A stretch of 64,000 nucleotides of DNA. Origin: a virus (lineage: Duplodnaviria; Caudoviricetes). The stretch lies in the IMG/VR virus record IMGVR_UViG_3300047160_022640, positions 1 through 64,000 of that record. One strand, 5' to 3'. The notes beneath the pieces were generated by a model. That model ran no database searches. It saw nothing but the letters and a program-made list of their open reading frames with translations, and was not told where the DNA came from. Positions 12,424 to 57,185 of the stretch are shown in pieces. The translations under genes and the position numbers were made by a program. Each line of letters opens with the position of its first letter. Positions within the stretch are counted from its first letter, which is position 1.

Positions 12424-12869
12424 GCGGCGCTCCTGCGAGGCAGATAGTAGACGACGAGCGCCCCGCCAACGACTGCGACGAGCGCGATACCGAGCCACGC
12501 GGTCGCTTTCGCGGCGTCCTTCGTGCTCTTCATCATCTCTTCGACTTGTGTCGCGAACGACGGAACCGGATCTGGGCGTTGCACCGTGTCGCTTGAACTC
12601 GTGACATCTGCTGTCGCGATCTCTGGGAATCCAGGTCCGTGCCATGGTGTCGGTACTGAGACGTCGAAGAGGTACCAGTCGCGCACCGGATCACTGTCGA
12701 AGTGCTCGGTCGTGCGCACCTTCACGGTCGCCTTGTTCGAGCTGAGCCATGCGCCGAAGGCGTCGGCGTCCGGCGCGAAGACGTCGACCCAGTAACGCCC
12801 CGCCGGGAGCGGATTCTGCGTTTCTTGAGCACCAAGCCCGATCAGACGCTCATCGAAAAAAACTTTCAT
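12420..12869 (-). CDS. tail-anchored membrane (virion) protein
   Basis: ATG 12869; beta domain, then C-terminal TM WLGIALVAVVGGALVVYY followed by PRR. Confidence 0.75.
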   Translation of the reverse strand: MKVFFDERLIGLGAQETQNPLPAGRYWVDVFAPDADAFGAWLSSNKATVKVRTTEHFDSDPVRDWYLFDVSVPTPWHGPGFPEIATADVTSSSDTVQRPDPVPSFATQVEEMMKSTKDAAKATAWLGIALVAVVGGALVVYYLPRRSAA

Positions 12870-13051
12870 CGTCGTCTCCGGCGCTTTCGGCCGCGGAAGG
12901 CGGACCAGACCTCTTCGAGGAACCATCCGGTGGCGGCTGTTGCTGCGCCACCGACGAGCGCGAGCGAAAACTCCGACGGCGCCGTCCTCGGGACAGTCGC
13001 GGTCTCCGCGAGGCCGAACTCGATAGGACGTCCGTTGCGGGTAACTGTCAT
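12866..13051 (-). CDS. small tail-anchored membrane protein
   Basis: TM followed by RGRKRRRRR. Confidence 0.7.
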   Translation of the reverse strand: MTVTRNGRPIEFGLAETATVPRTAPSEFSLALVGGAATAATGWFLEEVWSAFRGRKRRRRR

Positions 13052-13467
13052 CGGCGTGCTCTCCAGGAAGCGAGCGTCGCAATGGTCCCGACGGCGAGAC
13101 TCACCGCTGTCAGTATCGCGATCGTTTTGGACAAAGAATCGGCGCTAGTCGGCGTCGATATCTCCTGCTGAGCATCTCCAACCGGGAGGTAGACGCCGCC
13201 TGCGCGAAAACACCCTTCGACGAGGGCTCCTTGTGTGTCGGGCCCCCACACGTGCGGCTCTACGCGGATCACGGCGATGACGCCGGGAAGCGGAAAGCTC
13301 TCCGTCGCGCCGAGATCTACGGAGAGATCGGCCGCTGCCGCCATCGCGCGCGCGGCAAGCGCATCCGGAATAGGGCCGTCTACGCTGGTCCAGGGCCGAT
13401 AGCCGATGAGCGGCGCTATCGACGGACATTGCGCTGCGAGCTCGGGGCCTACGCCGAATTGCGCCAT
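13048..13467 (-). CDS. tail-anchored membrane (virion) protein
   Basis: Starts MAQFGVG; C-terminal TM followed by WRARR. Confidence 0.75.
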   Translation of the reverse strand: MAQFGVGPELAAQCPSIAPLIGYRPWTSVDGPIPDALAARAMAAAADLSVDLGATESFPLPGVIAVIRVEPHVWGPDTQGALVEGCFRAGGVYLPVGDAQQEISTPTSADSLSKTIAILTAVSLAVGTIATLASWRARR

Positions 13468-13577
13468 CTCTCGCTCGAAAGTCTACGTGTGTCGACTTGA
13501 CAGGTCCAGTTACGTAGGCGCAGTATGCCTAAAGCAGTACAAATGTCATGCGACAGGCAGGATGAAAGGCAGGTCAG

Positions 13578-13787
13578 GTGGCAACGACCAAGCAATTTCA
13601 GAAGAAAAGCAAAAAGGTCGAAGTCAAGCTGACCCCTGATCAGCACGAAATGGTCATCAGGCGTGCCGAGAAAAGCGGCATCAGGCTTGCCACTTGGATG
13701 CGTGTGGTTTTGATGCAGGTGGCTCGGAGTCAGCCGGCAAATGACGGCTATATCCGCATTCGAGAGCCGGACAGGACGACGGTATGA
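13578..13787 (+). CDS. ribbon-helix-helix DNA-binding protein
   Basis: KVEVKLTPDQHEMVIRRAEKSGIRLATWMRVVL; heads the morphogenesis operon; TTGACA at 13497-13502. Confidence 0.75.
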   Translation: MATTKQFQKKSKKVEVKLTPDQHEMVIRRAEKSGIRLATWMRVVLMQVARSQPANDGYIRIREPDRTTV

Positions 13788-14314
13788 AAGAGAACCCGCG
13801 ACAGATGATGGGATTCGAGACCTCTGCCGATCAGCAGGTGAAGATCTCGATGCGAGACTGGGATGCGCTCCGAAGGGCGCTCTGGCGCAGTCGAGTCGGA
13901 TGGGAAATCGTGATGCGGGCCGCTTCGCAGGTATTGCAGCGATGCGAGCACGTCGAAGGATGCCCCGGCGCGTTCAATGAGACAGAACCATGTCTCGGCG
14001 TATTCGGCAAAGACGAGCCCGAGTGCCCAGATCGCGAGACGCGCGCAGATGCGCTTGTAATTCTCAACGCCGCACGCATGTTCGCTCCTACCGATGCCGG
14101 ACGTGCCGCGGATATGCCGTTCATCGCGCCTAGTCGTGAGTACTACTGCGAAATTCTCTCGACACTCGTGGTTACGCAGCTACAGCTCGAAATGCTGCGC
14201 AAAGCCGGCGTCGAAATCCCGGAGCCTTCGCCGGAGATGGTCCCGGAGACGAAGTTGCCACAACTCGAAGCGCGGCGCTTAGCGCTGCCTGAAGCGACCA
14301 AGGAAAACACATGA
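13784..14314 (+). CDS. hypothetical protein
   Basis: ATGA-coupled; C/H cluster CEH..GC...C. Confidence 0.7.
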   Translation: MKENPRQMMGFETSADQQVKISMRDWDALRRALWRSRVGWEIVMRAASQVLQRCEHVEGCPGAFNETEPCLGVFGKDEPECPDRETRADALVILNAARMFAPTDAGRAADMPFIAPSREYYCEILSTLVVTQLQLEMLRKAGVEIPEPSPEMVPETKLPQLEARRLALPEATKENT

Positions 14315-14655
14315 AACTTCTCCCGCAACCGAATCAAGTGCTCGGCAGGATCGCGATTACGAAGACGCAGTCAGACATTATCGTGTCGACTGACCCGACC
14401 AAAGGCGTGTCCAAGTTCTTGTTCGTCGAATCGGTTGGCGAAGAGGTCAAAGGGATTCGTCCAGGCGACTTCGTTCTCCCGAGAATTATCAACAACATCT
14501 GGCTCAGAGGAGGCCGTCTTCACCGCGGTGTTGTCCCGATCGACGAGATTGTCTGTACGGTACGCGACGTACCGCTCAGCGACTTCGTCGACAAAGACGG
14601 TAAGCCGTTCGTAGCCGATGAAGAGGCGTCGGCTGAAGAAGCGAGGCCGTCATGA
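14311..14655 (+). CDS. GroES/Cpn10-like co-chaperonin
   Basis: LLPQPNQVL...TQSDIIV...VESVGEEVKGIRPGDFVL...IDEIVCTV follows the Cpn10 pattern. Confidence 0.65.
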   Translation: MKLLPQPNQVLGRIAITKTQSDIIVSTDPTKGVSKFLFVESVGEEVKGIRPGDFVLPRIINNIWLRGGRLHRGVVPIDEIVCTVRDVPLSDFVDKDGKPFVADEEASAEEARPS

Positions 14656-15266
14656 GCTGCGCTTGCCGCACTCCGGTGCGTCGCGCTCCGTTCGCGGAGG
14701 GCGCGACGATAGGACGCCTTCGTATTCGAGAGGCAGTCAGGCCGCGCGCCCCGCGTAACGTCGAGCCAGTTGTGCTCGCCGGCGCCAAGAGCGGCACGCG
14801 CTGCCGGCCGTTCATCATCGTACAAAAGGATCCGGATAAGTTCGCGGCGTGCAACGCGCTCGCCGACGAAATCGGGCCGCTCAACGATCCGAAGAAAGCC
14901 TTCCGCTTGATCGAGGACGCTATCGGCGACGAGGTCAACGAGGTCTTCGGTGTTCTCATGCTCGATCTGCATCAGCGCATGAAGGGTATGGCTGAAACCG
15001 GTCGCGGCGAGCCGACGAGCGTGATGGCACCAATCGGACCGACGGTGCAAGCGGTGCTCGGAACCGGCGCCGAGGGGGGCGCGATCATCTTCCACGTTCA
15101 TCCATCCGGCATCGAGGCGTATCCTAGTGACGCCGACATCGAGACGACGGAAGCGTTCGCTGACGCCTTCGCGGCCAGCGAAGTGCGTCTTCTCGATCAC
15201 ATCATCATCGGCGGTGATGCGCGTCGTCGTAGCTACTACTCTTTCCGTGAAGACGGGGGGATCTGA
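14652..15266 (+). CDS. RadC-like JAB/MPN metalloprotein
   Basis: E(VF)...HVHPSG...PSDAD...LLDHIIIG...YYSFRE. Confidence 0.9.
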   Translation: MSCACRTPVRRAPFAEGATIGRLRIREAVRPRAPRNVEPVVLAGAKSGTRCRPFIIVQKDPDKFAACNALADEIGPLNDPKKAFRLIEDAIGDEVNEVFGVLMLDLHQRMKGMAETGRGEPTSVMAPIGPTVQAVLGTGAEGGAIIFHVHPSGIEAYPSDADIETTEAFADAFAASEVRLLDHIIIGGDARRRSYYSFREDGGI

Positions 15267-15667: not shown

Positions 15668-15669
15668 TC

Positions 15670-17328
15670 ATGGCAGCGCGAAAAAGGCGACCGAATGGGC
15701 TCGGGGATCTCGACAACGGAAAGTTGTCGACTCCTTTACAACAGGACGAAAGTGACATTCTCGACGAAGTCGGCGCGGAGCGCGACGAAGAGACCGGTGA
15801 ATTCGTAGCCGACGAGGAAGAAGTCAAACGACTTGGTGCGCTCGATCCGGCTACAGTGCTCGAGAATCGGCGGAAAGATACGATCGTCGGTAAAAAGCGC
15901 GCGAATCAGAAGAACGTCACGCTCAACTCGGGTGACGTGCTCGAAAACTATGAGACGCTGCTTAGAATTTGGCCTTCCAATTCGATCATCATCTACGTTC
16001 GGCGGCTTACCGGACCGCCGACACAGAATGTGATCAACAACTATCCGCGATCAGGGGTCGAACTCTACACAGCGCTTCTCGGTATTCACGGATCAAGAGA
16101 AGTATCCGAGTACGAGGTCAATTTTCAGGACGCGTCGACTCGGCAGTATCGCACCAAGGGGCGAATTACACTGCCCGACACGCGCCCCGCGCCGCAGCAA
16201 GGAGCTCCCATGCAGCCGCCGTACGGCTATCCGCCAGGGTACCCACTTCCTCCAGGCTACCCGCCGCCGCCTGCGGGTTATCCGCCTCAGGGGTATCCGC
16301 CGCCGCCTGCGCCGCAAGCCGCAGCTCCTGGAGTGCCGCCGCCTCCGCCGGTCGTGCACGTGAACGCGCCACCCGCGCCCGACCTCGGTGCGAATGTCGA
16401 AATCTTACGACAGATCTTGTCGCTGGCACAGACAATGCAGCCGCCCGCACCCGCACCCGCACCCTCTGTCGCGCCTCCACAGCCGGTACTCCCGCCGCCT
16501 CCCGCGACGTCGGACCCGAACGCGATGCTCGTCTACCTGGTGCAACAACTCATCGCGGCTCGCGCGGCACCGGCACCCGTACCCGTCACGGCGCCAGTTG
16601 CTACGCCCGTGCACGAGCCGCCGCAAGGCCCCCCGGGGCATATCTGGGTCGAGCAGCTCCGTACCTGGGTGCCGCTCGAGAGCCTCGCTCGCGCGCTAGC
16701 GCCGGCTCCGCGCGGTCCCGGACCGAGTCAAGGGGGTGGCGGCGGATATCCGCCTCCAGGAGGCGCGTACCGCGGACGTGAGGAAGGACGACCTTACTAC
16801 TCGCAGCCGCCGCCCCAACCGCAGCGGGAGCGGTCGCCCGTCGATCAGCTCCGCGAGGCGGTCACGCTTCTTCGAACTGTCTCAAATTTGACGCAGGAGG
16901 TCGGCGAAATACTTCCCGGGGGACGCGAGGAATTAGGGCCCGCGCCGACGCCGACACCAGATGATCCGGTTCGCTTCATGAAAGTCGGCGACATCAACAT
17001 GGGGTTCGATCCGGAGAGCGGCGGCTTCCGCCCGTGGGAAACGCTTACTGCGAACGCCGACAAGATCATCAAGACGGTCAACGAGCAGATCGTCAAACCG
17101 ATACAGGAACGTCAGCATCCGCGGTCGTCTCAGCGGCGCGTGCACCCTCCTGTGCCCGGGGTCGTCACGATGATGCCCGGCGACGAGCCGCCGCCAGGGT
17201 ACGTGGCGGTTCCGGTCGATCAGCTGCCGCCCGCACCTGTCGACGTGCCTCCTCCCATTTCTTCGACGCCAGCGGCCCCACCATGGGGGGCGCCGGTAAT
17301 TCCCGTCGAAGGAAACGGTATCGGATAA
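15670..17328 (+). CDS. large proline-rich low-complexity protein (assembly/scaffold candidate)
   Basis: Globular N-terminal ~170 aa, then PPYGYPPGY/poly-Pro tracts interspersed with short helices. Confidence 0.75.
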   Translation: MAARKRRPNGLGDLDNGKLSTPLQQDESDILDEVGAERDEETGEFVADEEEVKRLGALDPATVLENRRKDTIVGKKRANQKNVTLNSGDVLENYETLLRIWPSNSIIIYVRRLTGPPTQNVINNYPRSGVELYTALLGIHGSREVSEYEVNFQDASTRQYRTKGRITLPDTRPAPQQGAPMQPPYGYPPGYPLPPGYPPPPAGYPPQGYPPPPAPQAAAPGVPPPPPVVHVNAPPAPDLGANVEILRQILSLAQTMQPPAPAPAPSVAPPQPVLPPPPATSDPNAMLVYLVQQLIAARAAPAPVPVTAPVATPVHEPPQGPPGHIWVEQLRTWVPLESLARALAPAPRGPGPSQGGGGGYPPPGGAYRGREEGRPYYSQPPPQPQRERSPVDQLREAVTLLRTVSNLTQEVGEILPGGREELGPAPTPTPDDPVRFMKVGDINMGFDPESGGFRPWETLTANADKIIKTVNEQIVKPIQERQHPRSSQRRVHPPVPGVVTMMPGDEPPPGYVAVPVDQLPPAPVDVPPPISSTPAAPPWGAPVIPVEGNGIG

Positions 17329-17329
17329 C

Positions 17330-17515
17330 GTGCGCTACCGAATCATGATGAGCATCGAGATCGAGGCGACCGGTGATCGGCAAGCCTTCGAAACGGCGTT
17401 GAAGTTGAAGGGGTTGGTCAAAGACAGTCCGATGCTCCAAATGGCGCTACAAGGCGCAGGTATTCAGGTTTCCGGAGATCCTGTCGTACACCAGCCGCAA
17501 CGAGCCGTAGGGTAG
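17330..17515 (+). CDS. hypothetical protein
   Basis: 61 aa within the operon. Confidence 0.6.
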   Translation: MRYRIMMSIEIEATGDRQAFETALKLKGLVKDSPMLQMALQGAGIQVSGDPVVHQPQRAVG

Positions 17516-17552
17516 ACCGCTCACCGACGCTCGCGTAGGCTAGAAGGGCGAC

Positions 17553-18650
17553 ATGAGACAGTATGTCGTCCACCCCGGCGATAGCCCTGCCACGATCGGA
17601 ATCGCGTACGCGGGATGCCCGAAATGCGCGGTCGATCTCATCAAGGCAAACCCGCACAAGTCGACTCGGACGCTGCCGAACGGATTCAAAACATTCACGT
17701 CGCTTGGAGTCGGGGAGGTACTCAATCTCCCAGACAAGTGGCTGGACGGTACCTTAGACACTCGTCCGAAAGCGTACTTTCTCGCGCTTCCCTACGCGGA
17801 CGGTATTACGCCCTCGACGCTCGGTCTCGCGGCAGCCGGTGTGCTCTCAGACTTCGCAACGCTCGACGAAGCGACGGCGCTTGTAGGCACACTGCCCGGG
17901 CTCGATGACGTCTCATTCAGTGCTGCGGTACCCGACACCGCAAATCTGATCGATTCCTCGATCACCAAAGAGGTTGGCGACATGTCCGGCGCTGCGGTGA
18001 CGCACGCCGAGAATGTGCGCACGAGCACCTCGGCGGCGCGACAACGCAACGCGGACTTGAGCGCCGCGCTCGCGGCTGGTGACGAGGCCGGCGCAACGAA
18101 GGCGCGACTCGATATCCAGAACGCGTTTTCGACAGCGATCAGCGACGCCAAGATCGCGCTACAGAGCTACTACGACAATCCTCAGATCGTTGCCAGCACG
18201 ACAGCGTCGGCGTTTTCGCCCACACTCGTGGCAGCGGCACAAGCGGCGTCGACCGCGATTGCTTCGGATGCAGGCTATTGCGCGTCCGTCGCGCGCACCG
18301 GAACATCGGTCAATTCTGCCATCCACGCCTTCAAGACGGCCTGGAACGCCTCGCAACCGAATCCGGTACCGATCAACACTGGCAACTACGAACTGCAAAC
18401 AGCGGCAGCGCTCGCGAGCGTGATTGGAAGCGCTCCAGCAGCGTGCGGCGCGCATATTGTTGTGTCGCCTCCTCCGGCACCGGTACCGACTGTGCTCGGT
18501 CCGATCGCGACGGTTCCGCAGAAGCAACCAATGAGCGCGGCGTCGATGGCAGGAATCAGTTTACTCGGCGCAGGAGCTATCACCGGCGCTGTTTATCTTA
18601 CGACGCATTCTAACTTTCGAGGCCGACTAGTCCGTAGGATACGAGGATGA
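17553..18650 (+). CDS. LysM-like domain, helical body, tail-anchored virion protein
   Basis: YVVHPGDSPATI...LIKANP...GEVLNLP; C-terminal TM and basic tail. Confidence 0.75.
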   Translation: MRQYVVHPGDSPATIGIAYAGCPKCAVDLIKANPHKSTRTLPNGFKTFTSLGVGEVLNLPDKWLDGTLDTRPKAYFLALPYADGITPSTLGLAAAGVLSDFATLDEATALVGTLPGLDDVSFSAAVPDTANLIDSSITKEVGDMSGAAVTHAENVRTSTSAARQRNADLSAALAAGDEAGATKARLDIQNAFSTAISDAKIALQSYYDNPQIVASTTASAFSPTLVAAAQAASTAIASDAGYCASVARTGTSVNSAIHAFKTAWNASQPNPVPINTGNYELQTAAALASVIGSAPAACGAHIVVSPPPAPVPTVLGPIATVPQKQPMSAASMAGISLLGAGAITGAVYLTTHSNFRGRLVRRIRG

Positions 18651-20290
18651 TCGACAAGCCAGTTCCGGGGGTAAAAACCGACGCGCGATCGCATCCGTCA
18701 GGCTTCAAAGGGGCTCGACTGTCGCTCGATGAGTGCGCGCAACGCTCATGGCATGCCCGCATGAGTCCGCGCCTGCGCGCGTGGGTGACGCAGCAGCTCG
18801 CGGCGTGTGGCGCATCGCGTGGGAGTCGCCGAGAAAAAGCGCAGTGTATTCTCGATGCGTTTCGCAAGAAGGTGCCGTACATCGCCGACCCGGTGATGGG
18901 CGAGTTCATGGCGACGCCGAATCAGTTGCTCTGCCTTGATGAAGGAGGACTCTGTGTCGTGGGCGGGGACTGCTTTCCGGAGGGAACGCTTCTGCTTCGC
19001 GATGATTTTTCGTTCGTACCGATCGAAAAAATAAAAATCGGAGAACGGATCTGGGGGAAAGATCGATGGTCTACGGTTACGCAGAAATGGGCCAAGGGAA
19101 CGCTCCCGATCGATGCGATCGAGATGAGCAATGGTTCAACGGTGCATTTGACGGCCGATCATAAGATATACGTCGGCGCTTGCGAGCACGGCGGTCGTTG
19201 TGAACAGGCGCAATGCCGTCAACCGCATAAGCGAATCGTGAATTTTGATCAACGAATCAAAATTGCCGATTTGCGCGAGGGAGACACCTTGCTTCAGCCG
19301 AAACGCATCGATTTCGGAGACGGAAACGTAGATCAGGATCGGATGTACGTTGAAGCACTAGCGTTAGCGGACGGATGGACGAAGGCCAGTAAAAATCCAG
19401 ATCTACCTCATCTCAGTTTCTACGTAGCCGGAAGAGACGGAAAGCGAAAAGAAGCTCAGAAATTAGAGGTAAAAGCAATCTGCGAACGCCTTGGAATCGA
19501 TACCTACTGGCACGAACGGTACATCGAGATCAAAGATCGCGCATGGGCTTCGCGTATCGCCGCTCTCGGATCAAGAGCTCGATTCAAAGCGCTCGAGACA
19601 ATCAATTTAGATGAAAGCACAGCAGCTGCTGCTCTTCGTGGGCTAATGGCGGATAGCACACAGAATACCGGTTCGACGCTACGAACTTATTCGACAACTA
19701 GCCGTCAGATGATGATTCAGGTTCGAGTTTTGCATCGTATGTTCGGAAAAATGACGAGCGTACGGATGTTGACGCCAGAACAGCACGGAGGAGCCGGAAA
19801 GCATCCGCTCTGGCGTGTCGAACAACGCGAAAAATACGCGCTCAACCTGTCTGTTCGCTCGATTGAACGTGCCGTTCGAGAGGTCCCTTGCTGGGATATC
19901 TCGACAGACGACCACTACGTGTATCTTCCGGAGCACGATGTGACGGTCAGCAATTGCGATGAGCATGCGATCACGCTCGCAGCGGCGATGATGTCGATCG
20001 GAATTCCCGCGATGATCGTCGGTAGCAGTCATCACGATCCGGCTGAGACGCCGACGCACGTGTACATGGCGTTCGAGGACGACATGGGCGAATGGGTCCG
20101 AATGGACGGAACGATTCAGCTGCCAGTCGGTAAGGTTTCCAAGTACCGACGCGAGTGGTGGGTCGAGCCAGGCAAGGAAGCCAAAGATACCGGCACCGGT
20201 GACTTCGTCGGCATGCGTGACGACCACGGGGACGGATCGCTGTCAGGGCCTCCAAGTCTCATCGATCTCTACTACTCAGGCATCCTATAG
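18647..20290 (+). CDS. transglutaminase-like cysteine protease (Cys-His-Asp) containing an intein
   Basis: Spliced product (219 aa) reads VPY..DP...GGD-CDEHAITLAAAMMSIGIP...THVY...MDGT. Confidence 0.85.
   Translation: MIDKPVPGVKTDARSHPSGFKGARLSLDECAQRSWHARMSPRLRAWVTQQLAACGASRGSRREKAQCILDAFRKKVPYIADPVMGEFMATPNQLLCLDEGGLCVVGGDCFPEGTLLLRDDFSFVPIEKIKIGERIWGKDRWSTVTQKWAKGTLPIDAIEMSNGSTVHLTADHKIYVGACEHGGRCEQAQCRQPHKRIVNFDQRIKIADLREGDTLLQPKRIDFGDGNVDQDRMYVEALALADGWTKASKNPDLPHLSFYVAGRDGKRKEAQKLEVKAICERLGIDTYWHERYIEIKDRAWASRIAALGSRARFKALETINLDESTAAAALRGLMADSTQNTGSTLRTYSTTSRQMMIQVRVLHRMFGKMTSVRMLTPEQHGGAGKHPLWRVEQREKYALNLSVRSIERAVREVPCWDISTDDHYVYLPEHDVTVSNCDEHAITLAAAMMSIGIPAMIVGSSHHDPAETPTHVYMAFEDDMGEWVRMDGTIQLPVGKVSKYRREWWVEPGKEAKDTGTGDFVGMRDDHGDGSLSGPPSLIDLYYSGIL
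18971..19954 (+). mobile_element. intein (328 aa) with degenerate LAGLIDADG endonuclease
   Basis: Starts CFPEGT; block B LTADHKIY; ALADG and LRGLMADS; block H YSTTSRQM; ends VSN before Cys+1 (penultimate Ser rather than His). Confidence 0.9.
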
Positions 20291-20550: not shown

Positions 20551-22239
20551 ATGGGCCTCTACGACGATCCTTCGGGAGATCTCAGCGAAGCGCGACGAAG
20601 CACGCGCAGCGCTGAGAAACGTCACTCGTTGGGGGCGACCGTCGGCGCTCGCAAGAGCTCTTCGGTTCAATCACTGCTCTTCGATCGAAGCGTCTGGACG
20701 CCGGCGAAGGCCAAGCAGTGGGCCTCCTCGCACGGGTACAAAAGCGGGAAGGTGGACGTCACCGACCGTTACATCCGAATCCGTCAACTCGATCCTTCGG
20801 GGTTCAAGGTCAAGCGCACCATCCCCTTCGGCAAGGACGCCTCGGGCATTCGCGCCGTAATTGTCAGAGAGGAAAGCCAAGGTATGGCAACCGTCAAAGC
20901 ATCTCGTCGTCGTCGCCGCCGCCACACGAAGAAGAAGACCGCCGCCAAGCGCCCTCGTCGACGCCGCGCGACGCGAAGACACGCGCGTCGTCGCAGAGTG
21001 AAGGCCGCTGTCACCGTGAGCGCGCCGCGCCGCCGGCGCCGCCGAGCCGCGAAGGTCGTTCGTCGTCGTCGACGCCGAGTGCACGCGGTTGCCGCTCAGG
21101 TTCAAGCACCTCGTCGCCGTCGACGTCGGCGTCGCGCGTCGCATGTGATGGCCTGGCGCGGAGACGCGGAGGGGCATCGCCGTGCGGCGAAGAAGGGGCA
21201 TCGTCGTCGTAAGGCGCGGCGCGCCCCGAAGCGTCGGCGTCGTTCGCATCGTCGTCGAGCACGCGAGACGGTGATGACCGAGGCCCCGCGCCGTCGGCGA
21301 CGTCGTCATCGCCGCGCGCGCGCCTACGCCGCCGCCCCTCGCCGTCGTCATCGCCGCATGCGCATGCACGCCTTTACCGGCGGCGGTCGCATGGGAATGG
21401 CCGAACTCGCGACGAGTGTGCTCACCGCTGGAATCGGGTTCGTTCTCGCTGACGGTCTCGATCGATTCTTCGCGACGTACAACCCGTCGGCGACGACGGC
21501 GCCGCCCGCGGACAAGTTCACGTCGACTGGCGCAGGGACGCTCGGCAACGGGCTCAACGTCGCCACTCGGCCGAACATGTACCGGATCGGTGTCGGTGCG
21601 GCTGCGGTCGCGGCGCCGCTCGGTGGCGCGGTGCTCGCGAAGCGGAGTCCGATGCTCCGTTCGGCAATGGAGGGCATGGCGGTCGGTGCCGGCATCAAGT
21701 TCTTCTCGATGCTGTGGTCGAACATCTTCGTGCCGCTCTTCACTCCGAAGGACACGTCGATCGGTGGGCTCCAGAAGAGCTACGTCGCTCGGCTGTATCC
21801 GATGGAGGTGGCGGCGCATCTCAACCTGCAGGCAAACCTGAAGAACGTCGCGAGCGCAGGCTCCGGCGCTCTCTCCGGCGCGCCGCAGCTCGGGATGGGC
21901 GCACCCGATGTGGGTCCGTTCGCGCTCAGCGATCAGTACCCCACAATTCAGCAGAACTGGGGCACTGGCGGCGAGTCGCCGTACCCAGATGCGGCGCAAG
22001 CGCTCCGCAGCAGGGCGGGCATGAGCGGGCCCGGTAGCGACTACCCGACCGCGACGCAGGCAATGCGCGCCGCGACCGGGATCGTCGGCTACGAGCCGGG
22101 TCCGCCCCCAGGATCAGGTCCCGGCCCGAAGGCGTCGCCGCATACCGATCCGTCCTGCGGCTGCATCGGAGACGATCTGACCATCGGTATGGCCGGTGTT
22201 TTCAGCGGCCCCGAAGAGGAATCACCCTTCAATCCCTGA
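20551..22239 (+). CDS. arginine-rich (protamine-like) core protein with membrane segments
   Basis: N-terminal small domain, ~170 aa of poly-Arg repeats, hydrophobic helices, Gly/Pro tail; second in-frame ATG with SD at 20884. Confidence 0.8.
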   Translation: MGLYDDPSGDLSEARRSTRSAEKRHSLGATVGARKSSSVQSLLFDRSVWTPAKAKQWASSHGYKSGKVDVTDRYIRIRQLDPSGFKVKRTIPFGKDASGIRAVIVREESQGMATVKASRRRRRRHTKKKTAAKRPRRRRATRRHARRRRVKAAVTVSAPRRRRRRAAKVVRRRRRRVHAVAAQVQAPRRRRRRRRASHVMAWRGDAEGHRRAAKKGHRRRKARRAPKRRRRSHRRRARETVMTEAPRRRRRRHRRARAYAAAPRRRHRRMRMHAFTGGGRMGMAELATSVLTAGIGFVLADGLDRFFATYNPSATTAPPADKFTSTGAGTLGNGLNVATRPNMYRIGVGAAAVAAPLGGAVLAKRSPMLRSAMEGMAVGAGIKFFSMLWSNIFVPLFTPKDTSIGGLQKSYVARLYPMEVAAHLNLQANLKNVASAGSGALSGAPQLGMGAPDVGPFALSDQYPTIQQNWGTGGESPYPDAAQALRSRAGMSGPGSDYPTATQAMRAATGIVGYEPGPPPGSGPGPKASPHTDPSCGCIGDDLTIGMAGVFSGPEEESPFNP

Positions 22240-22353: not shown

Positions 22354-23721
22354 ATGCCAAGCAAGAGCATCATCGGTTCGGTCACGAAGAGTTACGGAAA
22401 CGACAAGCCGAAGGTTCGGCGTCCTCAGTTCGGCGGCGGCGTCGAAGCGCACGACATGCGTCCCTCGAAGACGCCTGATGGTAGGGGCGGTTTCCTGGGA
22501 GCCGCCGCGGACGCGGCGCAGAAATGCATCCGCTGCAGCTTCGGCAACATCCCCGTGATCGAGGAGGTCGTGTGGACGATCCCTCTCCCGCTCACGAGCG
22601 AAGAGGCGCAGTCGACGCTCGGCGATACGGTGAATCTGCTCTCAGGCAGCTCCGCCGTCCCCGGCGTGGCGTCGATCGACTCGACGTTCCTCATCAACGG
22701 GATCTTGCAGACCGACATCCTCGCTCAGGGTATCGGCGTGCATGTGTTCCACGAGCCGATGACGTTCTCGACGATCGGTAACGCCTTCGTTGCGCCGTCG
22801 ACGACGGTTTCGCCGCCTCCTTCGCCGGACGTCTACACGGCGAACGATCTCGTGAATCGCGCAATGAGCACGCAGGTACTCGCCGACGGTTCGAACTTCT
22901 CGCCGGCGGTGTTCGAGTTCGGCGTCGATGCCTGGCGCGCCGGGTGGAATTTCATCAACGCCTACCAGTTCCAGTGGAAGACGTCGCAGCGCGAACTCGT
23001 TCTCAACGAGCTCGCCGCCGACGTTAGCTACTTCGGTTCGTTCGCAGACGCCGAAGCGAGCGGCACGAGCGAGGTTGCGGTCATCGAGTTCGTGGCCGCG
23101 GTCAACGCGCTCTACCGAAGCAAGGGATCGGCAACGATCTTCCTCCCCGTGAACTTCCGTCGCGTGGGCTCAGTGAACTCGACGAGCGGCACGAACAACG
23201 TGGGCATCTTCCACCCGACGCGCGATTTCGATCTCGCACCGGTGACGTGGGGCGGTCTGCGCTGGCAGGGGTACGGCTGCCGCGGGCAGATGTACCGCCC
23301 GATCGAGAGCCCGTGCTTCCTCGAGCGCGGGATTCCTATCGGTATGCTGTTCGTGGTGCAAGACGCGGTGCACCAGGCCGCGATGCTCGCTGCCGTGACG
23401 ATCGACAACGATCCTCTCGGTACGAACATCGCTCCGGACGAGAATCTGAACTGCACGACGGCCGTGCTTCCCGCGCCCGCGACGGCGGGTACTCCGACGG
23501 CTGGTGCGATCACGGCCGGAGGTAGCAACACGATGCTCGAGCAGACACTCGACTCGACACCGGTGCTCGTCACCCAGTCGGTCAACGTCTGCCGCGAGGT
23601 ATTCAAGGGAGGCATTCTCAAGCTCGCGATCAAAATCAAGGGTTGGGAGATGCCCGGCGGTTGGAAGGCGTACTGCGCAACCAATCTGCCGACTGTCATG
23701 AGCACGACGAGCGCGGGCTGA
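22354..23721 (+). CDS. major capsid protein candidate (jelly-roll type)
   Basis: 455 aa beta-rich, strongly GC3-biased codons, basic N-arm, ends FKGGILKLAIKIKGWEM; position downstream of protease and core genes. Fold not demonstrated. Confidence 0.55.
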   Translation: MPSKSIIGSVTKSYGNDKPKVRRPQFGGGVEAHDMRPSKTPDGRGGFLGAAADAAQKCIRCSFGNIPVIEEVVWTIPLPLTSEEAQSTLGDTVNLLSGSSAVPGVASIDSTFLINGILQTDILAQGIGVHVFHEPMTFSTIGNAFVAPSTTVSPPPSPDVYTANDLVNRAMSTQVLADGSNFSPAVFEFGVDAWRAGWNFINAYQFQWKTSQRELVLNELAADVSYFGSFADAEASGTSEVAVIEFVAAVNALYRSKGSATIFLPVNFRRVGSVNSTSGTNNVGIFHPTRDFDLAPVTWGGLRWQGYGCRGQMYRPIESPCFLERGIPIGMLFVVQDAVHQAAMLAAVTIDNDPLGTNIAPDENLNCTTAVLPAPATAGTPTAGAITAGGSNTMLEQTLDSTPVLVTQSVNVCREVFKGGILKLAIKIKGWEMPGGWKAYCATNLPTVMSTTSAG

Positions 23722-23809: not shown

Positions 23810-24415
23810 ATGACTCAGCCGCGTGACGATCAAATCCGCAACCTCGCTCTGTACGCTCCGAAGACAGCGTATGGGATGATCATCGGTGTTCCGCGTGTAC
23901 CGACGGTCCTCGAGATCCCGATTCAATTCTCCTCGAGCACCGTGAACGCGCCTCCGGTCGTGACGAACCTGCAGAACAACCTGACGCAGGACACCGTCAT
24001 CGAGCGCATGTCGTTCAAGCTCGCTCAGCAGAACAGTTTCCCCGGGAGCCCGTTCCAAAGCCTCTACTTCAATCAGTTGAAGCAGTCCGGAACCGGTATC
24101 GGTGTACAGATGGCCGTTTACGGCGGCCCCAAGTACAACGTCAACGACACGTTCGTCGATCTCGCAACGCTCGCTGACGTGTTCGCCGTGACGTGGCCGC
24201 AAGGGTGGCCGCTTCCGAAGCAGAGCAACGTCAAGGTGAGCGCGATACTGCTCGATACGCCGGTCAGCGTTCCGTACAACTGCACGATCACACTGCTCGG
24301 TTGGCAATTCCTAGACAAGACGATCGACGACATCTCAGACGCCGATGCGCGCGCTCGTCTGAACAAGCTCGGCATTCAAACCCCTGACTTGAGCGTGCTC
24401 CTTCCGCAGAAGTGA
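23810..24415 (+). CDS. second capsid protein candidate (single jelly-roll size)
   Basis: 201 aa alternating beta strands; last strand CTITLLGWQF echoes IKIKGWEM of the upstream protein; GAGGAG SD. Confidence 0.5.
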   Translation: MTQPRDDQIRNLALYAPKTAYGMIIGVPRVPTVLEIPIQFSSSTVNAPPVVTNLQNNLTQDTVIERMSFKLAQQNSFPGSPFQSLYFNQLKQSGTGIGVQMAVYGGPKYNVNDTFVDLATLADVFAVTWPQGWPLPKQSNVKVSAILLDTPVSVPYNCTITLLGWQFLDKTIDDISDADARARLNKLGIQTPDLSVLLPQK

Positions 24416-25303: not shown

Positions 25304-25542
25304 CGAGCGTCGAAGCGGGCATATTCGCCAGCGTTGTTGGCGGCATGATCAACGGCGCTATCGGCGGGTTCGCGGCCGACCACGCCGATCATCCGGTCAT
25401 CAAGGGCGCGCTCATTACCGGACTCGTATCTGGTGTCGCTTCGGCAATCTGGTTTGCCGGTTTCGGTGCGAAGCAGCAGCAATCGAGCGGACAGGTATCA
25501 GGATCACTGGTGCCACGCCAGATCCATGCGAGGTTCCTCTAA
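25300..25542 (+). CDS. small glycine-zipper membrane protein
   Basis: Two hydrophobic Gly-rich helices; resembles 10620-10847 in architecture. Confidence 0.7.
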   Translation: MTSVEAGIFASVVGGMINGAIGGFAADHADHPVIKGALITGLVSGVASAIWFAGFGAKQQQSSGQVSGSLVPRQIHARFL

Positions 25543-26237
25543 TGCCTACGCCGGCACAAGCCTACGGCCATCCCGATTTCGTTACGGACGTCCCCGTGCA
25601 AGGCCCCACCGACGAGGGAATTCGCTCGAAGGACTGCTTGTACGTCAACACACATATTCCGGCGCAACCCGCGTGCGCCGATTGCAAAGGACCGATTCCT
25701 ATGTGGGCACAGCAGAATACACCTCACGGCGTAGGCGAGCTGATTTCGTACGGCGGGCACGGAGCGCTCGGCTTCGCGCTCGGCACCGTCAACGATCCAG
25801 AAATCTGGAGCAAGTTGACTCCTGATCAGCAGATGTGGGTGACCAACTCGCTGAACACCCTGAACTCGAAGATCATGGCGGCAACCGGATCGAGCTGCCC
25901 GACATGGGGGCCAGCCATCAACCTCGCCGGCGGCTGCTTTCAGACGTGGTTCAACAACAACTACGGCGGCGCCAATAGCGGCGTGATGACGCTGCGTACG
26001 GATGGCGTCTTCGATCAAGACACGCTCTGCGCGCTCATCACGGTCACTGGGATGCATCAGACCGACTTCCCGACGGCCTTCCCGGATCCCAACAAGCAGT
26101 ATTGCCAGTCGCCGGGATCGGCAACGGCGACGAAGAAGATTTTGACGGCGAAGATGCTCGGTTTCGGCGCGCTCGGCGTTGTCGGGCTCGGCGGAATCGC
26201 TTACGCCGCAATTCACGGCAAGAAGCGCCGGCGCTGA
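25542..26237 (+). CDS. tail-anchored virion protein with PG-binding-like motif
   Basis: DGVFDQDT motif, Cys pairs, C-terminal TM followed by GKKRRR. Confidence 0.7.
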   Translation: MPTPAQAYGHPDFVTDVPVQGPTDEGIRSKDCLYVNTHIPAQPACADCKGPIPMWAQQNTPHGVGELISYGGHGALGFALGTVNDPEIWSKLTPDQQMWVTNSLNTLNSKIMAATGSSCPTWGPAINLAGGCFQTWFNNNYGGANSGVMTLRTDGVFDQDTLCALITVTGMHQTDFPTAFPDPNKQYCQSPGSATATKKILTAKMLGFGALGVVGLGGIAYAAIHGKKRRR

Positions 26238-26264: not shown

Positions 26265-27446
26265 ATGTCGTTCTATCTAGTGCAGCGCGGTGATTCTCCG
26301 GCGAGCATCGCTCGACGACACGGCGTGTCGATAGGGTCGCTGCTCGGCGCAAACCCGCACAAGCCTGTCGTTGCGGTCGGTCAAGTACGAACGTGGCAAT
26401 CGCTTGGACTCGGCGAGCGCTTGAACCTTCCAGTGGGCGTCGGCGCAATCACGCCAGCGCCGCTGAACGCAGTGCACAAACAGATCAGCATCAACAACCC
26501 GGGACCGCATGTCGCGGATGCGGATGTGGCGCTCTGGCAAACCATCGTCGGAGCAACCCCTGACGGTCTCTTCGGACCGAACACGCAAGCAGCGACGAAG
26601 GCGTGGCAAGCCGCGCACGGGCTTGCTGCGGACGGCATCGTCGGTCCGAAGACGTGGGCCGCTGCAACGTTGGTGGCCGCTCCAGCTGCAGCCGCCGCGT
26701 CACTTCCTCAGATCGCCACGCAGATCTTGTCGCAGCTCCCGTCTATCCCGGGTATCACGCCAGCTGCCGCTCCCGCTCCTGTCCCTACGGCAGCGCCCAC
26801 CGTAACCCCGGCGGCGCCGGCGGCGGCAGCGATCCTCGCATCAGGAATCGACCCGTGCCTCTCCGACAACGCGCAGATGGTGTGCGCGGCGCAGCGCGTG
26901 CTCGGTGTCGCAGCCGATGGCAAATACGGCAACGACACCGCGACGGCGTTGCGGAAGTTTATACCGGGCGCTCCTCCCGGATGCAGCCCACGCCCTGCTT
27001 GGTGGACGCCGACGGGACAGAGCAACTGCAACACGGTAGCTGCTGCGCCTTCGCTTCCTTCGCTCCCTTCCCTCCCGCTACCGGTCCCCAGTGCTGCGCC
27101 GAGTCTGCCGTCGATCCCGTCGGTGCTTCCGATGCCGTCGACCTCGTCGACGCCGCTCCCGCCGATCGTCCTCCCGACGAACCCACCGACCGTAGTTCCG
27201 CTGCCATCGGTGCCGTCGATTCCGTCTGTCTTGCCGACGACGGCACAACCCGGTCCTGTTCAGCCTACGGTGACGGCGCCCGCGAAAGCGGGCATCAGCC
27301 CCGGCGTCATGGTCGCGGGCGGTCTCGGCGCCGTAGCACTCGTCGCGATGGTGGCGATGAGCGGAAAACACGGAGGCGGCCGAGCGCCAGCGAGCCGTCG
27401 ATCAGGCGGCCATAAGGCGCGCCGCACTTCCAGGAAGCGAAGGTAG
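26265..27446 (+). CDS. LysM plus two peptidoglycan-binding domains, Pro-rich stalk, tail anchor
   Basis: YLVQRGDSPASIARRHGVS..LLGANP; DGLFGPNTQAATKAWQAAHGLAADGIVGPKTW; ADGKYGNDT; TM and basic tail. Confidence 0.9.
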   Translation: MSFYLVQRGDSPASIARRHGVSIGSLLGANPHKPVVAVGQVRTWQSLGLGERLNLPVGVGAITPAPLNAVHKQISINNPGPHVADADVALWQTIVGATPDGLFGPNTQAATKAWQAAHGLAADGIVGPKTWAAATLVAAPAAAAASLPQIATQILSQLPSIPGITPAAAPAPVPTAAPTVTPAAPAAAAILASGIDPCLSDNAQMVCAAQRVLGVAADGKYGNDTATALRKFIPGAPPGCSPRPAWWTPTGQSNCNTVAAAPSLPSLPSLPLPVPSAAPSLPSIPSVLPMPSTSSTPLPPIVLPTNPPTVVPLPSVPSIPSVLPTTAQPGPVQPTVTAPAKAGISPGVMVAGGLGAVALVAMVAMSGKHGGGRAPASRRSGGHKARRTSRKRR

Positions 27447-51000: not shown

Positions 51001-51011
51001 AAGGCGGAGCT

Positions 51012-52460: not shown

Positions 52461-52474
52461 CCGGAGAAAAGAAC

Positions 52475-53932: not shown

Positions 53933-53936
53933 AACC

Positions 53937-54344: not shown

Positions 54345-54730
54345 GATTTCTCCGTTCGGGCGCCGACGATCTCGCGCATGAAGGGAATGCACGCCATCGC
54401 TCCGGTCGGATTGTACGTGACACCCAGCTCCACGGATCGCTTTAGGCGCAGCCAGTCCGTCTCATCGAGGGCGACCGTAGCTCCCGGCCGCAGATCAACC
54501 GTCTTGGCGATGATCGTCTGCGCGCTCACGAGCGCAACCATCGTCCAGTGGACCGTGTTCGCATCCTTCGGACTGTCCGAAACGAATGCGGGATCGACGC
54601 ACCTGCCGCGTATGAACTGCACATGACTTTCGGTAAGCGATCTACCGGCAGAGTCGCACGCGGGGCGCCCATCGAGTTCGCTCAAAGCGACGTCCGGTAA
54701 AATCGTGAAATAGCGAAGATTGTTCGACAT
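54341..54730 (-). CDS. hypothetical protein
   Basis: ATG 54730 preceded by TACGAT at 7 nt. Confidence 0.6.
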   Translation of the reverse strand: MSNNLRYFTILPDVALSELDGRPACDSAGRSLTESHVQFIRGRCVDPAFVSDSPKDANTVHWTMVALVSAQTIIAKTVDLRPGATVALDETDWLRLKRSVELGVTYNPTGAMACIPFMREIVGARTEKS

Positions 54731-54773
54731 CGGGAAAATCGTACCGCGATCTGATAGGCTTTGGCGAGCAATC

Positions 54774-55454
54774 GTGGCTACGACCAGCATCCTAGCCGTT
54801 CCTGGCATCGGACGAGTCGATCAGGGGTTCCTGAATTCGCTCGCAGCCGTAGCCGATCGGCACAACTGGAACGCTGACGGAATCGCCGGCGTTATATCTC
54901 ACGAGAGCGGCTTCAACGCCGCAGCGCACACGCCGATCGTCGGCCAGACTGCGACGGGACTGATCCAATTCACCGAACACACAGCTAACACGCTCGGTAC
55001 GACGACTGCGGCGCTGCGTACAATGTCCGCGACGCAGCAGTTGCCTTACGTCGAAGCGTTCTTCGCGAAAACGCTTCCGACGGTGCCTGCGGATCCAGCG
55101 GACTATATACTAGCTACGTACGGTCGATCTGATCTGATCGGTAAGGACCCGTCCGTCGTAATCGATAGCGGTTCTTCGACAGATCCAAACGAAGTTCAAA
55201 GATACAAACTGAATAGCGCACTCGATCGAGCGAACAAGGGATACATCACCGTCGGTGATCTTCGTTCGGTTATGAACGCCACCTTCGCGGGAGCTAACGG
55301 TCGCAGGTTGCCGATCGTGCCGGAAATAGAAATACTGTCGTCTCCGACGAAAACGACTCAGCCGATCCTTCTCGTGACGATTGCTGCGCTGAGCCTCTCC
55401 GTCGCGGCCGGGTACGCCGCGCATCAGACACTCAAGCGATGGCCGACTAGGTGA
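54774..55454 (+). CDS. lytic transglycosylase/lysozyme-like protein with C-terminal membrane anchor
   Basis: ISHESGF (catalytic Glu), ATGLIQF, QQLPYVEAFF; C-terminal TM followed by KRWPTR. Start uncertain (track 54720). Confidence 0.8.
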   Translation: MATTSILAVPGIGRVDQGFLNSLAAVADRHNWNADGIAGVISHESGFNAAAHTPIVGQTATGLIQFTEHTANTLGTTTAALRTMSATQQLPYVEAFFAKTLPTVPADPADYILATYGRSDLIGKDPSVVIDSGSSTDPNEVQRYKLNSALDRANKGYITVGDLRSVMNATFAGANGRRLPIVPEIEILSSPTKTTQPILLVTIAALSLSVAAGYAAHQTLKRWPTR

Positions 55455-55517
55455 GATATTTCGATATCTTACGACTCGCACGCTACAGCGTGAATGCGAA
55501 TAGTGTAGGCTCTTGAC

Positions 55518-57185
55518 ATGCCTGAATTCGGCGTAGGCGCTCAGATCGGTCCGAATCTGCAGAAGATGATCGATCAGGCACATCTGCCGTCATGGCTGTC
55601 TGACCGCTTTCACGACGAAGGTGCCGCGCTTCAGCAGGCGAGCTTTGCCGCCACCATGTACGTCAAAGGGTACGGGCGTGATCCCCGCTTCGGGCTACCG
55701 ACCGATCAGACATCGCTCAATATCCTTCTGAATCCGAGCGATCCTTTTTGGTCTTCAACGCAGCAACACGGCGCAGACCGCGACTACGGTGTCTCTCACG
55801 CGCCGAAACTATCGACGACGACACATTGGACACTTGGTCCTTTCGAGAGCATCGCCAAAATCCCGATATTAGGACCCGTGTTCAAAGCCGCTGTCGCCCC
55901 GATCACGTCGGTCGCGCACCTTGCCGAGGGGCAACCTATCGGTCAGGCGATGAAAGACAACTTCGCGTCGCAAGTCGGGGCGATCAAAGCGGTCGGTCCC
56001 TACGCCGTTACTGTTATCTCGTTCGTACTACCCGGCATCGGCACCGGCGTCGCCGCTGCGCTCTCCGCTGGCGCAGCTCTCGCGGAAGGCAAGCCCATCG
56101 ACGCAGCGCTCGAGGACGCGATCAAGGGCGCAATCCCAGGCGGCGCTCTTGCCGCAAGCGGCTTCGAGCTCGCGAAACGCGTAGCCAGTGGAGAAAACGT
56201 GGGAAAGGCAGCGCTCGAGAGCGCGCGCACAGCGTTGCCTCCCGAGGCTCAAAAAGCTTTCGATGTAGGAATCGCTGTTGTTACCGGCAAGCAACTCCAG
56301 CAAGCACTCACCGCCGGTATCACAAGTCTCGCGCCCGATGCTATCAAACAGGTCTTCGATGTCGGTGCGAAAGCAATTCAATCGACGCCCGGTCTCGCGG
56401 CAATCGTACAATCACTTCCGAGCGATGTAGCAAAGCAGGGGGCGCAACTCGCTTCAGGAGCGCTCGCGCACGCCGGCATCAACGAAACACAGATCCGTGC
56501 GATGCGCTCGAAACTCACGGGCGATACGCTCAAAGGGTTCGACGCTGGACTGCAGGGGCAGATTAAACACTTCCCATGGATCGAGAGCATCGCCGGTATG
56601 CCGCCTGGAGCAACTTCCACGCCGGTAGTGGAAACTACGGAACAACAGGAGCTCAGCCAGCTGGCGCAGCTCGCTCCCGATCAACAGAAACAGCTCGTCA
56701 ATCTCGCTGCTCTTTCGAAGTTGACGCCCGATCAGCAGGCACAGTTGGTTGCCTACGCGCAAGCGCAAAAGCAACCGACGGCCGCTCCGAAACCGCCTGA
56801 GCCGGCAAAACCACAGGCAGTACCGAAACCGCCTGAACCGACCCGTGCGGCGCCCGCAGCGCCCGCTGGTCCGTCTGTCACACCCGCTGCGGGGCCGCCG
56901 GCCTATCCGCCGTACCCGAAGGCGACGGGCACCGTCCACGGGCTCGGAAAGCCCTCCTACGGCGGCTATCCTGGCGGTGGCGGCGCGCTCGGGGAACCGG
57001 CGCCTTCCTGCCGCGTGTGGGGCGCGCCCGTCGAGTTCGATCCTGCCATGCGTGCCGCCGCACGCGCGGCGCTCGCCTCCTCGAAGGGGCGTCCCGCGGT
57101 GTCGCGCGCGCCCGGAGGCGTTCTGTACATGTTCTCACTCGAAAACGGCGTGCTCCAGGCCCGCCCCTGCGTTTCCGGAGAGTGA
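55518..57185 (+). CDS. Ala/Gly-rich membrane-associated virion protein (DNA delivery candidate)
   Basis: Starts MPEFGVG; long amphipathic Ala/Gly helices, Pro-rich linker, small C-domain. Confidence 0.7.
   Translation: MPEFGVGAQIGPNLQKMIDQAHLPSWLSDRFHDEGAALQQASFAATMYVKGYGRDPRFGLPTDQTSLNILLNPSDPFWSSTQQHGADRDYGVSHAPKLSTTTHWTLGPFESIAKIPILGPVFKAAVAPITSVAHLAEGQPIGQAMKDNFASQVGAIKAVGPYAVTVISFVLPGIGTGVAAALSAGAALAEGKPIDAALEDAIKGAIPGGALAASGFELAKRVASGENVGKAALESARTALPPEAQKAFDVGIAVVTGKQLQQALTAGITSLAPDAIKQVFDVGAKAIQSTPGLAAIVQSLPSDVAKQGAQLASGALAHAGINETQIRAMRSKLTGDTLKGFDAGLQGQIKHFPWIESIAGMPPGATSTPVVETTEQQELSQLAQLAPDQQKQLVNLAALSKLTPDQQAQLVAYAQAQKQPTAAPKPPEPAKPQAVPKPPEPTRAAPAAPAGPSVTPAAGPPAYPPYPKATGTVHGLGKPSYGGYPGGGGALGEPAPSCRVWGAPVEFDPAMRAAARAALASSKGRPAVSRAPGGVLYMFSLENGVLQARPCVSGE

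Follow-up and report, generated by a model that had tools for sequence, protein, structure and literature searches.

We analyze here the first 64 kb (the window, in what follows) of an 87.8-kb IMG/VR virus record, IMGVR_UViG_3300047160_022640, which has about 60% GC, and a short glycine motif that recurs in the proteins of its structural module. The motif is phi-G-phi-G, where phi stands for a hydrophobic residue; it is very probably real, constrained at the level of the protein, and spread over several families. Judging from the sequences, we tentatively propose that phi-G-phi-G is the recognition and cleavage site of a transglutaminase-fold enzyme encoded in the same module (18647-20290, plus strand), and as such a multi-substrate processing code. 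Both the cutting of the motif and the part of this enzyme in it are inferred, a reading that we favor and consider quite possible, if still short of probable.

In what follows, proteins are named by the coordinate at which their gene starts. The comparative data are 28 related viral loci centered on the orthologue of the 17553 protein, 3 more distant loci, 61 proteins homologous to 55518, and, for the capsid candidate (22354-23721), 169 representatives. Gene starts in the related loci are the output of a crude custom gene caller. That the products of the module are virion proteins is a reasonable presumption; for motif carriers other than the capsid candidate, it is made from their operon position and membrane anchors.

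A glycine motif in several protein families

An initial annotation of this DNA had described a recurrent G-[V/L/M]-G near the N-termini and at the domain junctions of virion proteins. All the glycine strings that it quoted are present in the sequence, and a motif common to multiple families does stand, but its definition had to be corrected to [RK]-x-phi-G-phi-G, in which A, F, I or Y often takes the middle position. In addition, several of the sites are features of other kinds: GLGERL in the 26265 protein and LGVGE in the 17553 protein belong to the LysM C-terminal consensus, and several further instances are Gly-rich membrane helices.

In the capsid candidate, the first 45-60 residues form an N-terminal arm that is unalignable apart from one motif island, which reads P(-5), R/K(-3), phi(-1), G(0), L/F/M/Y(+1), G(+2), a small residue at +3, and P(+5). 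The two glycines of the island reach 100% and 98% in a sequence logo. The window copy of this [RK]-x-phi-G-phi-G is F-G-G-G, residues 26-29 (22429-22440, plus strand), and its G27 and G29 are at least 90% conserved in 66 capsid representatives of 21-53% identity, and in 22 of 23 loci. We observe phi-G-phi-G in 91% of 64 capsid arms, versus 5% after shuffling, and 20 of the 64 arms have 2-4 copies of G-phi-G, with the extra ones about 20 residues downstream. The motif of the capsid arm had initially been placed at F-L-G-A-A (residues 47-51; 22492-22506, plus strand). That assignment has to be given up: the conserved site is F-G-G-G, and F-L-G-A-A, which is not itself a G-x-G, aligns with a facultative second copy, being the degenerate spot at the position where homologues have theirs.

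Two proteins begin with the motif almost immediately. The 555-aa 55518 protein (55518-57185, plus strand) has F-G-V-G at residues 4-7 (55527-55538), as part of a 7-residue N-terminal leader, and so does, at the same residues (13447-13458, minus strand), the 139-aa C-tail-anchored 13467 protein (13048-13467, minus strand), which has its membrane helix at residues 115-133. It had been noticed that these two unrelated proteins start alike, and this is correct: beyond the first 10 residues, within which both read M-x-[QE]-F-G-V-G, BLASTP finds nothing in common between them. The 13467 family has M-A-Q-[FY]-G-[AVI]-[GD] at its very start in 12 of 13 loci, mostly as G-A-G, with the start codon fixed by stops 2-4 codons upstream. 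The 55518 family has a consensus start M-x-x-x-G-L-G, and the motif falls within residues 1-30 in 38% of 48 homologues, compared with 3% expected. Close homologues that lack the leader begin M-A-[DEQ]-I-G-P, exactly one residue past the second Gly of the window protein, and one of these leaderless homologues has an in-frame stop 4 codons upstream. Because they start just past the second Gly, the 7-residue leader is a separable unit.

The motif is also found in linkers. H-G-L-G, at residues 474-477 of the 55518 protein (56937-56948, plus strand), lies in a Pro-rich linker before the C-terminal domain, and its citation as a motif site is borne out by about 20 of 48 homologues, which have x-G-[VL]-G-[AG] at the corresponding position. 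The same can be said of V-G-V-G at residues 57-60 of the 26265 protein (26265-27446, plus strand; site 26433-26444), a LysM/PG_binding_1 protein with a C-terminal membrane anchor, where the string PVGVGA had been reported right behind the LysM domain: P-[VAI]-G-[VI]-G-[AV] is kept in this post-LysM linker in 11 of 16 homologues. Two more sites are partly conserved, both of them in indel-rich linkers. H-G-V-G, residues 62-65 of the 231-aa 25542 protein (25542-26237, plus strand; site 25725-25736), sits beside an indel-rich stretch, and 13 of 20 homologues have it as G-[VIL]-G-E. The Arg-rich 20551 membrane protein (20551-22239, plus strand) has L-G-M-G at residues 447-450 (21889-21900), in the linker that leads from its membrane region to its C-terminal tail; the site appears as x-G-[VM]-G-[AS]-P-D-V-G-P-F-A-L in 9 of 20 homologues, a short stretch of this indel-prone linker being missing in the rest, and the distant locus L047 has the equivalent L-L-G-L-G-A-P.

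For the small C-tail-anchored protein whose gene ends at 12420 on the minus strand, I-G-L-G (12831-12842, minus strand) had been placed at residue 10, assuming a start at 12869. The motif is indeed kept, since syntenic small minus-strand genes have V-I-R-[LF]-G-[LMVF]-G, but in those it comes 25-60 residues from the start. Thus the start at 12869 is probably too far downstream, and the true one upstream of it (for instance, at the in-frame ATG at 12926). The open reading frame (ORF; 12420-12869, minus strand) is open up to 13082. The expectation of conservation in homologues holds for the capsid candidate and for the 13467, 55518 and 26265 families, and holds partly for 25542 and 20551. It fails for N-G-L-G at residues 9-12 of the 552-aa 15670 protein (15670-17328, plus strand; site 15694-15705): this site, cited as NGLGD, is kept in 0 of 20 homologues and falls outside the conserved motif set.

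Enrichment of the motif in structural versus non-structural ORFs had been anticipated as well. This is found for phi-G-phi-G in the core module (12.4-27.7 kb), with 11 observed versus 4.3 expected from within-protein shuffles (p=0.003), about 2.5-fold, and the enrichment is found only there; replication and other genes show no excess (4 observed, 7.4 expected). It is not found for G[VLM]G over the genome, where we count 24 versus 43 expected, because the collagen-like proteins suppress the motif; in the core module, G[VLM]G stands at 11 versus 6.3 (p=0.05). Roughly half of the core-module matches fall within predicted membrane helices, so that the signal from this single genome is weak. When membrane helices are left out, phi-G-phi-G is above shuffle expectation in 20 of 20 related loci (192 versus about 89), and its density in related loci amounts to 4.1 per 1000 over residues 1-40 compared with 1.3 beyond residue 100, an approximately three-fold N-terminal bias. 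As the loci are related and the gene calls crude, these 20-locus figures describe a family trait and not independent trials.

Orthologues differ synonymously in their codons at the motif, which indicates constraint at the protein level. The motif is kept in clades with capsid proteins only about 29% identical to that of the window, and in distant loci small genes near the enzyme and capsid genes also begin with motif-bearing leaders.

At the level of DNA, an identical 14-nt string, AATTCGGCGTAGGC, encodes both F-G-V-G leaders (13447-13460, minus strand; 55525-55538, plus strand) and includes the rare Val codon GTA; orthologues do not keep it. We rejected a DNA or RNA element as the reason for the two F-G-V-G starts, given the synonymous variation in orthologues and given that a 14-mer identity is expected by chance in 64 kb. 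Prepilin, lipobox and double-glycine bacteriocin signals were also set aside, as by inspection their flanking features are missing. Ahead of the 13467 gene there is a promoter-like element (13468-13510, minus strand), with equivalents in L001-L019, made of G-T-C-A-A-G, about 9 nt, and C-G-T-A-G-A-C-T. In every 13467 orthologue it ends about 8-13 nt ahead of the ATG, which suggests a very short or absent mRNA leader. Gene 55518 has a comparable G-T-G-T-A-G-G-C-T, 6 nt ahead of its ATG.

An intein-interrupted transglutaminase-core enzyme

The candidate processing enzyme, encoded at 18647-20290, is a Cys-His-Asp protein of the transglutaminase-core type. It matches Pfam Transglut_core (PF01841) with 25.4 bits for a cut-off of 23, and its L045 orthologue scores 28.7 bits. 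Transglut_core is the only cysteine-hydrolase domain that Pfam and PHROGs find in the module, in which no Pfam or PHROG family for a clan CE (Ulp1-like) or assemblin-like protease was matched. The gene is interrupted by an intein (residues 109-436; 18971-19954, plus strand), located immediately before the catalytic Cys437 (codon 19955-19957), and most orthologues align, without the insert, to residues 1-108 plus 437-547. The intein has Cys as its first residue and Asn-Cys across its C-terminal junction (the two junctions read G-G-D/C-F-P and V-S-N/C-D-E), and it matches the Hint profile weakly (E=0.007). The position of the intein directly before the catalytic Cys means that its +1 nucleophile is the active-site Cys of the enzyme. 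Only 4 of about 25 related loci carry the intein (L003, L007, L016, L022).

The 15 intein-free orthologues are about 220 aa long and have the triad C109/H143/D159 invariant, equivalent to C437/H471/D487 in the window and kept also in the distant fusion forms. The initial proposal of a spliced transglutaminase-fold product of 219 aa thus agrees with what these orthologues look like. With a mean identity of 77%, they make the enzyme the most conserved protein of the module, above, as we compare them, the capsid candidate, whose BLAST identities to its orthologues in the same loci are 65-79%.

The AlphaFold2 model of the enzyme has a predicted local distance difference test score (pLDDT) of 61.5. 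Its top Foldseek matches (3isr, 4xz7, 8z4f, 4fgp and 6g49) are weak, with E-values of 0.005-0.03 and a template modeling (TM) score of about 0.35; the best of them are all transglutaminase-like hydrolases, namely a putative cysteine protease (3isr), PeiP, LapG and TgpA. The Peptidase_C93 profile gave no Pfam match at E <= 0.01, and a PDB sequence search with the enzyme profile returned nothing. The predicted complex of the enzyme with residues 1-60 of the capsid arm scored 0.00, which is no answer and counts neither way.

In every related locus that we checked, including the clades with about 29% capsid identity, the enzyme is encoded 2-4 kb upstream of the capsid candidate. In distant clades, the enzyme is a four-part fusion consisting of a motif leader, the catalytic domain, 1-3 tandem motif copies, and a membrane-anchored extension. 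The window enzyme has a degenerate copy of the motif in its C-terminal tail, F-V-G-M (residues 520-523; 20204-20215, plus strand), within a G-D-F-V-G-M that is invariant in the 15 orthologues. By eye, it corresponds to the [FY]-V-G-I-G-A of L045 and L047, where the catalytic domain is followed by 2-3 copies of the motif in tandem. By analogy, the motif-bracketed enzyme of the distant clades looks like a self-excising processing protease flanked by its own sites.

Possible functions of the motif

If phi-G-phi-G is a processing code, the enzyme would be active only once its intein is spliced out, and would then cut after the second Gly, with Gly at P1, hydrophobic residues at P2 and P4, and a basic residue at P6. 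Cleavage would strip short leaders, of 7 residues from the 13467 and 55518 proteins and of about 29 from the capsid candidate, would separate domains at the linker sites, and would free the enzyme from its own extensions. Four features of the sequences would fit such cleavage. One is that the constraint seen in the sequence logo is asymmetric, strong from -3 to +2 and weak past the second Gly, the pattern that one might expect, by analogy, of non-prime-side protease recognition. Another is the hydrophobic P2, which papain-like S2 pockets (clan CA) favor. The other two are the dispensable leaders, and the copies of the motif that flank the enzyme itself.

Taken further, the proposal is that a large family of uncultured and apparently tailless bacterial viruses from soil (80-125 kb, with a jelly-roll capsid candidate and an internal membrane) matures by means of a transglutaminase-fold protease that trims phi-G-phi-G leaders off the capsid and many membrane proteins, the enzyme being in some clades membrane-anchored and self-excising. 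It would be the convergent counterpart, on a different fold, of the adenovirus, poxvirus and African swine fever virus (ASFV) systems. In this full form the picture is a bolder one, and we hold it with correspondingly more doubt.

Several observations count against cleavage by this enzyme. The closest 55518 homologues do not have the motif, and the middle residue and the flanks of the motif vary from family to family. The counts come from related loci and are not independent, and the gene starts behind them are those of a crude caller. The enzyme model is poor, and its weak fold matches (E >= 0.005) include the cell-wall endoisopeptidase PeiP. Like the SLT and LysM proteins that the module encodes, the distant enzyme is made of a domain followed by a C-terminal anchor, as a cell-entry lysin could be. 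Finally, in the capsid model (pLDDT 83.6), in which the N-terminal arm has low pLDDT, the motif is above its flanks and has a predicted beta-bridge at residue 25, as would suit a docking role.

The main rival, and a serious one even if on balance we find it unlikely, builds on these last points. It takes the motif as an assembly or docking tag that is not cleaved, an alternating phi-G-phi-G strand that brings proteins into the particle by binding one partner common to them, be it the shell of the capsid, a membrane factor or a chaperone. The enzyme would be a membrane-associated cell-wall endopeptidase for entry or lysis, tagged only for incorporation; as modeled, its fold would be equally compatible with that of a cell-wall endoisopeptidase. 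The module is rich in C-anchored cell-wall modules (LysM, PG_binding_1, SLT), with which the distant enzyme homologues share their anchor layout, and phage PeiP is among the best fold matches. There is also the precedent of the T4-type capsid-targeting sequences, short N-terminal tags that direct incorporation (PMC9026906). Nevertheless, leaders of 7 residues and tandem triple copies beside an enzyme domain are easier to understand as cleavage sites, and the leader of the 55518 protein is dispensable in close homologues. Moreover, lysins tend to be less conserved than this enzyme, which has no wall-binding domain of its own.

It is improbable, in our judgment, that there is no common function at all, and that the motif is a mixture of LysM consensus, Gly-rich helices, jelly-roll turns and Gly linkers picked post hoc in a 60% GC proteome rich in Gly, Ala, Val and Leu. 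Such a mixture does cover some of the cited instances, those in LysM domains and membrane helices and the one that is not conserved, and it is in line with the lack of genome-wide enrichment for G[VLM]G. Conserved A-phi-A and A-phi-G clusters are also about as frequent in the same alignments (9 and 9, versus 10 for G-phi-G), and a shared same-position N-terminal 4-mer among about 95 proteins is only marginally unlikely (0.1-0.5, by a rough estimate). What it does not cover is the conservation in the capsid arms and in the N-termini of the 55518 family, each far above expectation. Nor does it account for the excess outside membrane helices in all 20 loci with its N-terminal bias, or for the persistence of the motif in clades whose capsids are so divergent.

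The enzyme could instead be a transpeptidase or cross-linker, passing a thioester formed at the second Gly to a Lys side chain, or acting by transamidation, so that virion proteins would be covalently linked. The enzyme belongs to the transglutaminase superfamily, a Cys-His-Asp acyl-enzyme may end in aminolysis as well as in hydrolysis (as in transglutaminases and sortase-like enzymes), and capsid cross-linking is known in principle from HK97. We think this highly improbable. Position -2 of the motif can be any residue, and as Gln is not conserved there, classical Gln-Lys transamidation at the motif is unlikely; Gln-Lys cross-linking at Q-F-G was rejected on this ground. In addition, LapG and PeiP, which come nearest in fold among small transglutaminase-core proteins of viruses and bacteria, are hydrolases.

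We give next to no credence to cleavage of the motif by a host protease or by the second possible peptidase of the operon, a RadC-like JAB (JAMM) domain protein (14652-15266, plus strand; Pfam RadC E=3.4e-20). Its JAB motif, E...H-x-H-P-S-G...S-x-x-D, is intact and conserved in 18 homologues, and JAB enzymes typically cut after Gly-Gly (deubiquitinases, Cap3-type), but their substrates have a Gly where our motif has a bulky P2. Most relatives have the gene, conserved, in their structural operon. Of five distant loci checked, L047 has it; in the other four (L023, L025, L027 and L045), all of which keep the motif, it was not found at 10 kb or less from the capsid gene. PHROGs places the protein with DNA-repair proteins, under the label "DNA repair protein".

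If cleavage at phi-G-phi-G by the transglutaminase-fold enzyme is correct, it would represent a new protease class for virus assembly, and would provide a sequence rule to predict mature protein ends across an uncultured virus family. It would also mean that bacterial and eukaryotic viruses came independently to the maturation of multiple substrates at a Gly motif. Even as a tag that is not cleaved, the motif marks which unannotated proteins share one assembly pathway.

Genomic setting and known systems

The region 12.4-57.2 kb is a single long block, mostly on the plus strand. It includes collagen-like fibre genes and glycosylation enzymes; LysM, PG_binding_1 and SLT proteins bearing C-terminal membrane anchors; and the intein-split transglutaminase-core and RadC-like JAB genes. 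Neither Pfam nor PHROGs recognizes in it a terminase, a portal, an HK97 capsid or a tail protein, nor in the whole 88-kb genome a packaging ATPase, terminase or portal; a Walker A motif is absent from the 12.4-27.7 kb module. Other than for the PG-binding, SLT and RadC proteins, PHROGs has no family for the core proteins.

The capsid candidate has only weak beta-sandwich or jelly-roll matches (Z <= 5.7), among them HCIV-1, SPV1, PRD1 P3, HHIV-2, PBCV-1 and FLiP (Z 5.0-5.5). Foldseek with the capsid model returned only papillomavirus L1 rows with a meaningless TM of 0.07. The capsid candidate and the product of the next gene (23810-24415) have in common an internal x-G-I-G-V strand (residues ~126 and ~96, respectively), kept in 20 of 23 and in 19 of 20 homologues; this could be a single jelly-roll element, present in two paralogues.

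Proteins of the 55518 family are extremely conserved in a hydrophobic core rich in Gly and Ala (residues ~115-260), which is followed by the Pro-rich linker and a small Cys-bracketed C-terminal domain; a PDB sequence search with the family found nothing. In some homologues the protein is fused to B_lectin or GH25 lysozyme domains, suggestive of a part in penetrating the cell envelope.

Relatives of this virus are abundant in metagenomes, on contigs of 54-125 kb. A blastn search of a phage collection showed no relative, and a scan of GTDB genomes yielded a single 5.8-kb contig of a metagenome-assembled genome (Candidatus Binatia), which provides no host information. Scans of viral contigs with the 55518 and 13467 proteins one at a time gave no matches, and the scan for the A5 subgroup gave no loci. 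In the distant relatives L023 (11310-11684), L025 and L027, a GroES-like Cpn10 co-chaperonin gene adjoins the structural genes (Pfam E=2.9e-16 in L023), as does, by eye, one at 16760-17404 in L045. The window gene in a comparable place, 14311-14655, has no Pfam match. A PHM-like (peptidylglycine monooxygenase) identity of ORF 6927-7904 is not supported, as it has no Pfam match and no PDB sequence match; were that identity real, an enzyme for Gly-ended peptides would be an intriguing partner of Gly-ended leaders.

To our knowledge, no maturation protease is known for the prokaryotic viruses with a jelly-roll capsid and an internal membrane (PRD1, PM2, sphaerolipovirus-like), and a full-text literature search found nothing on a transglutaminase-fold virion maturation protease or on this virus group. 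There are, however, several known systems with which the proposed one can be compared. Adenain, cutting at (M/I/L)-X-G-G↓X, vaccinia I7L, at A-G↓X, and ASFV pS273R, at G-G↓X, are each a single Cys protease for many virion proteins (PMC1198262, PMC8728581). We propose the same for the window, one Cys protease and many virion proteins at a short Gly motif, in a virus that, like those, seems to combine a jelly-roll capsid with an internal membrane. Those proteases are Ulp1-like (clan CE), whereas the window enzyme is of the transglutaminase-core type, with a phi-G-phi-G register and a hydrophobic P2; its host is presumably bacterial, and cleavage is here a prediction only.

In the T4 gp21 and the phiKZ/SPN3US prohead protease systems, leaders of 10-19 residues on unrelated head proteins end in a common cleavage motif, and an N-terminal segment of the major capsid protein is removed (PMC9026906, PMC9958956, PMC7411985). 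Short N-terminal stretches ending in a common motif, on unrelated proteins that include the capsid candidate, are seen in the window as well. The difference is that the T4 gp21 and phiKZ/SPN3US enzymes are serine proteases of assemblin-like fold, from HK97-fold tailed phages, and their motifs are (L/I)-X-E or X-X-E.

Other comparisons come from the fold of the enzyme. LapG (C93) is a small transglutaminase-fold Cys-His-Asp protease that cuts one protein at an N-terminal di-alanine motif (PMC3032545, PMC10990149). The window enzyme is likewise small, with a Cys-His-Asp triad and a predicted fold of that kind, and LapG is among its best, if weak, fold matches; LapG differs in being periplasmic and calcium-dependent with a single adhesin as substrate, and the window enzyme has no Pfam match to Peptidase_C93. 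The lasso-peptide leader peptidase (the McjB-type B protein) is also of transglutaminase fold and removes a short N-terminal leader, a Gly-adjacent end being left (as cited in PMC10318531). The likeness is one of description only, and the context is different, that of ribosomally synthesized and post-translationally modified peptides, with a leader-binding partner needed. Finally, PeiW and PeiP (C71) are virus-encoded transglutaminase-fold Cys hydrolases that act as pseudomurein endoisopeptidases (PMC10318531). The window enzyme is virus-encoded as they are and predicted to be of transglutaminase fold, with PeiP a top match. Unlike the window enzyme, which has no wall-binding repeats and is found fixed beside the capsid gene, PeiW and PeiP carry such repeats and cut the isopeptide bonds of cell walls.

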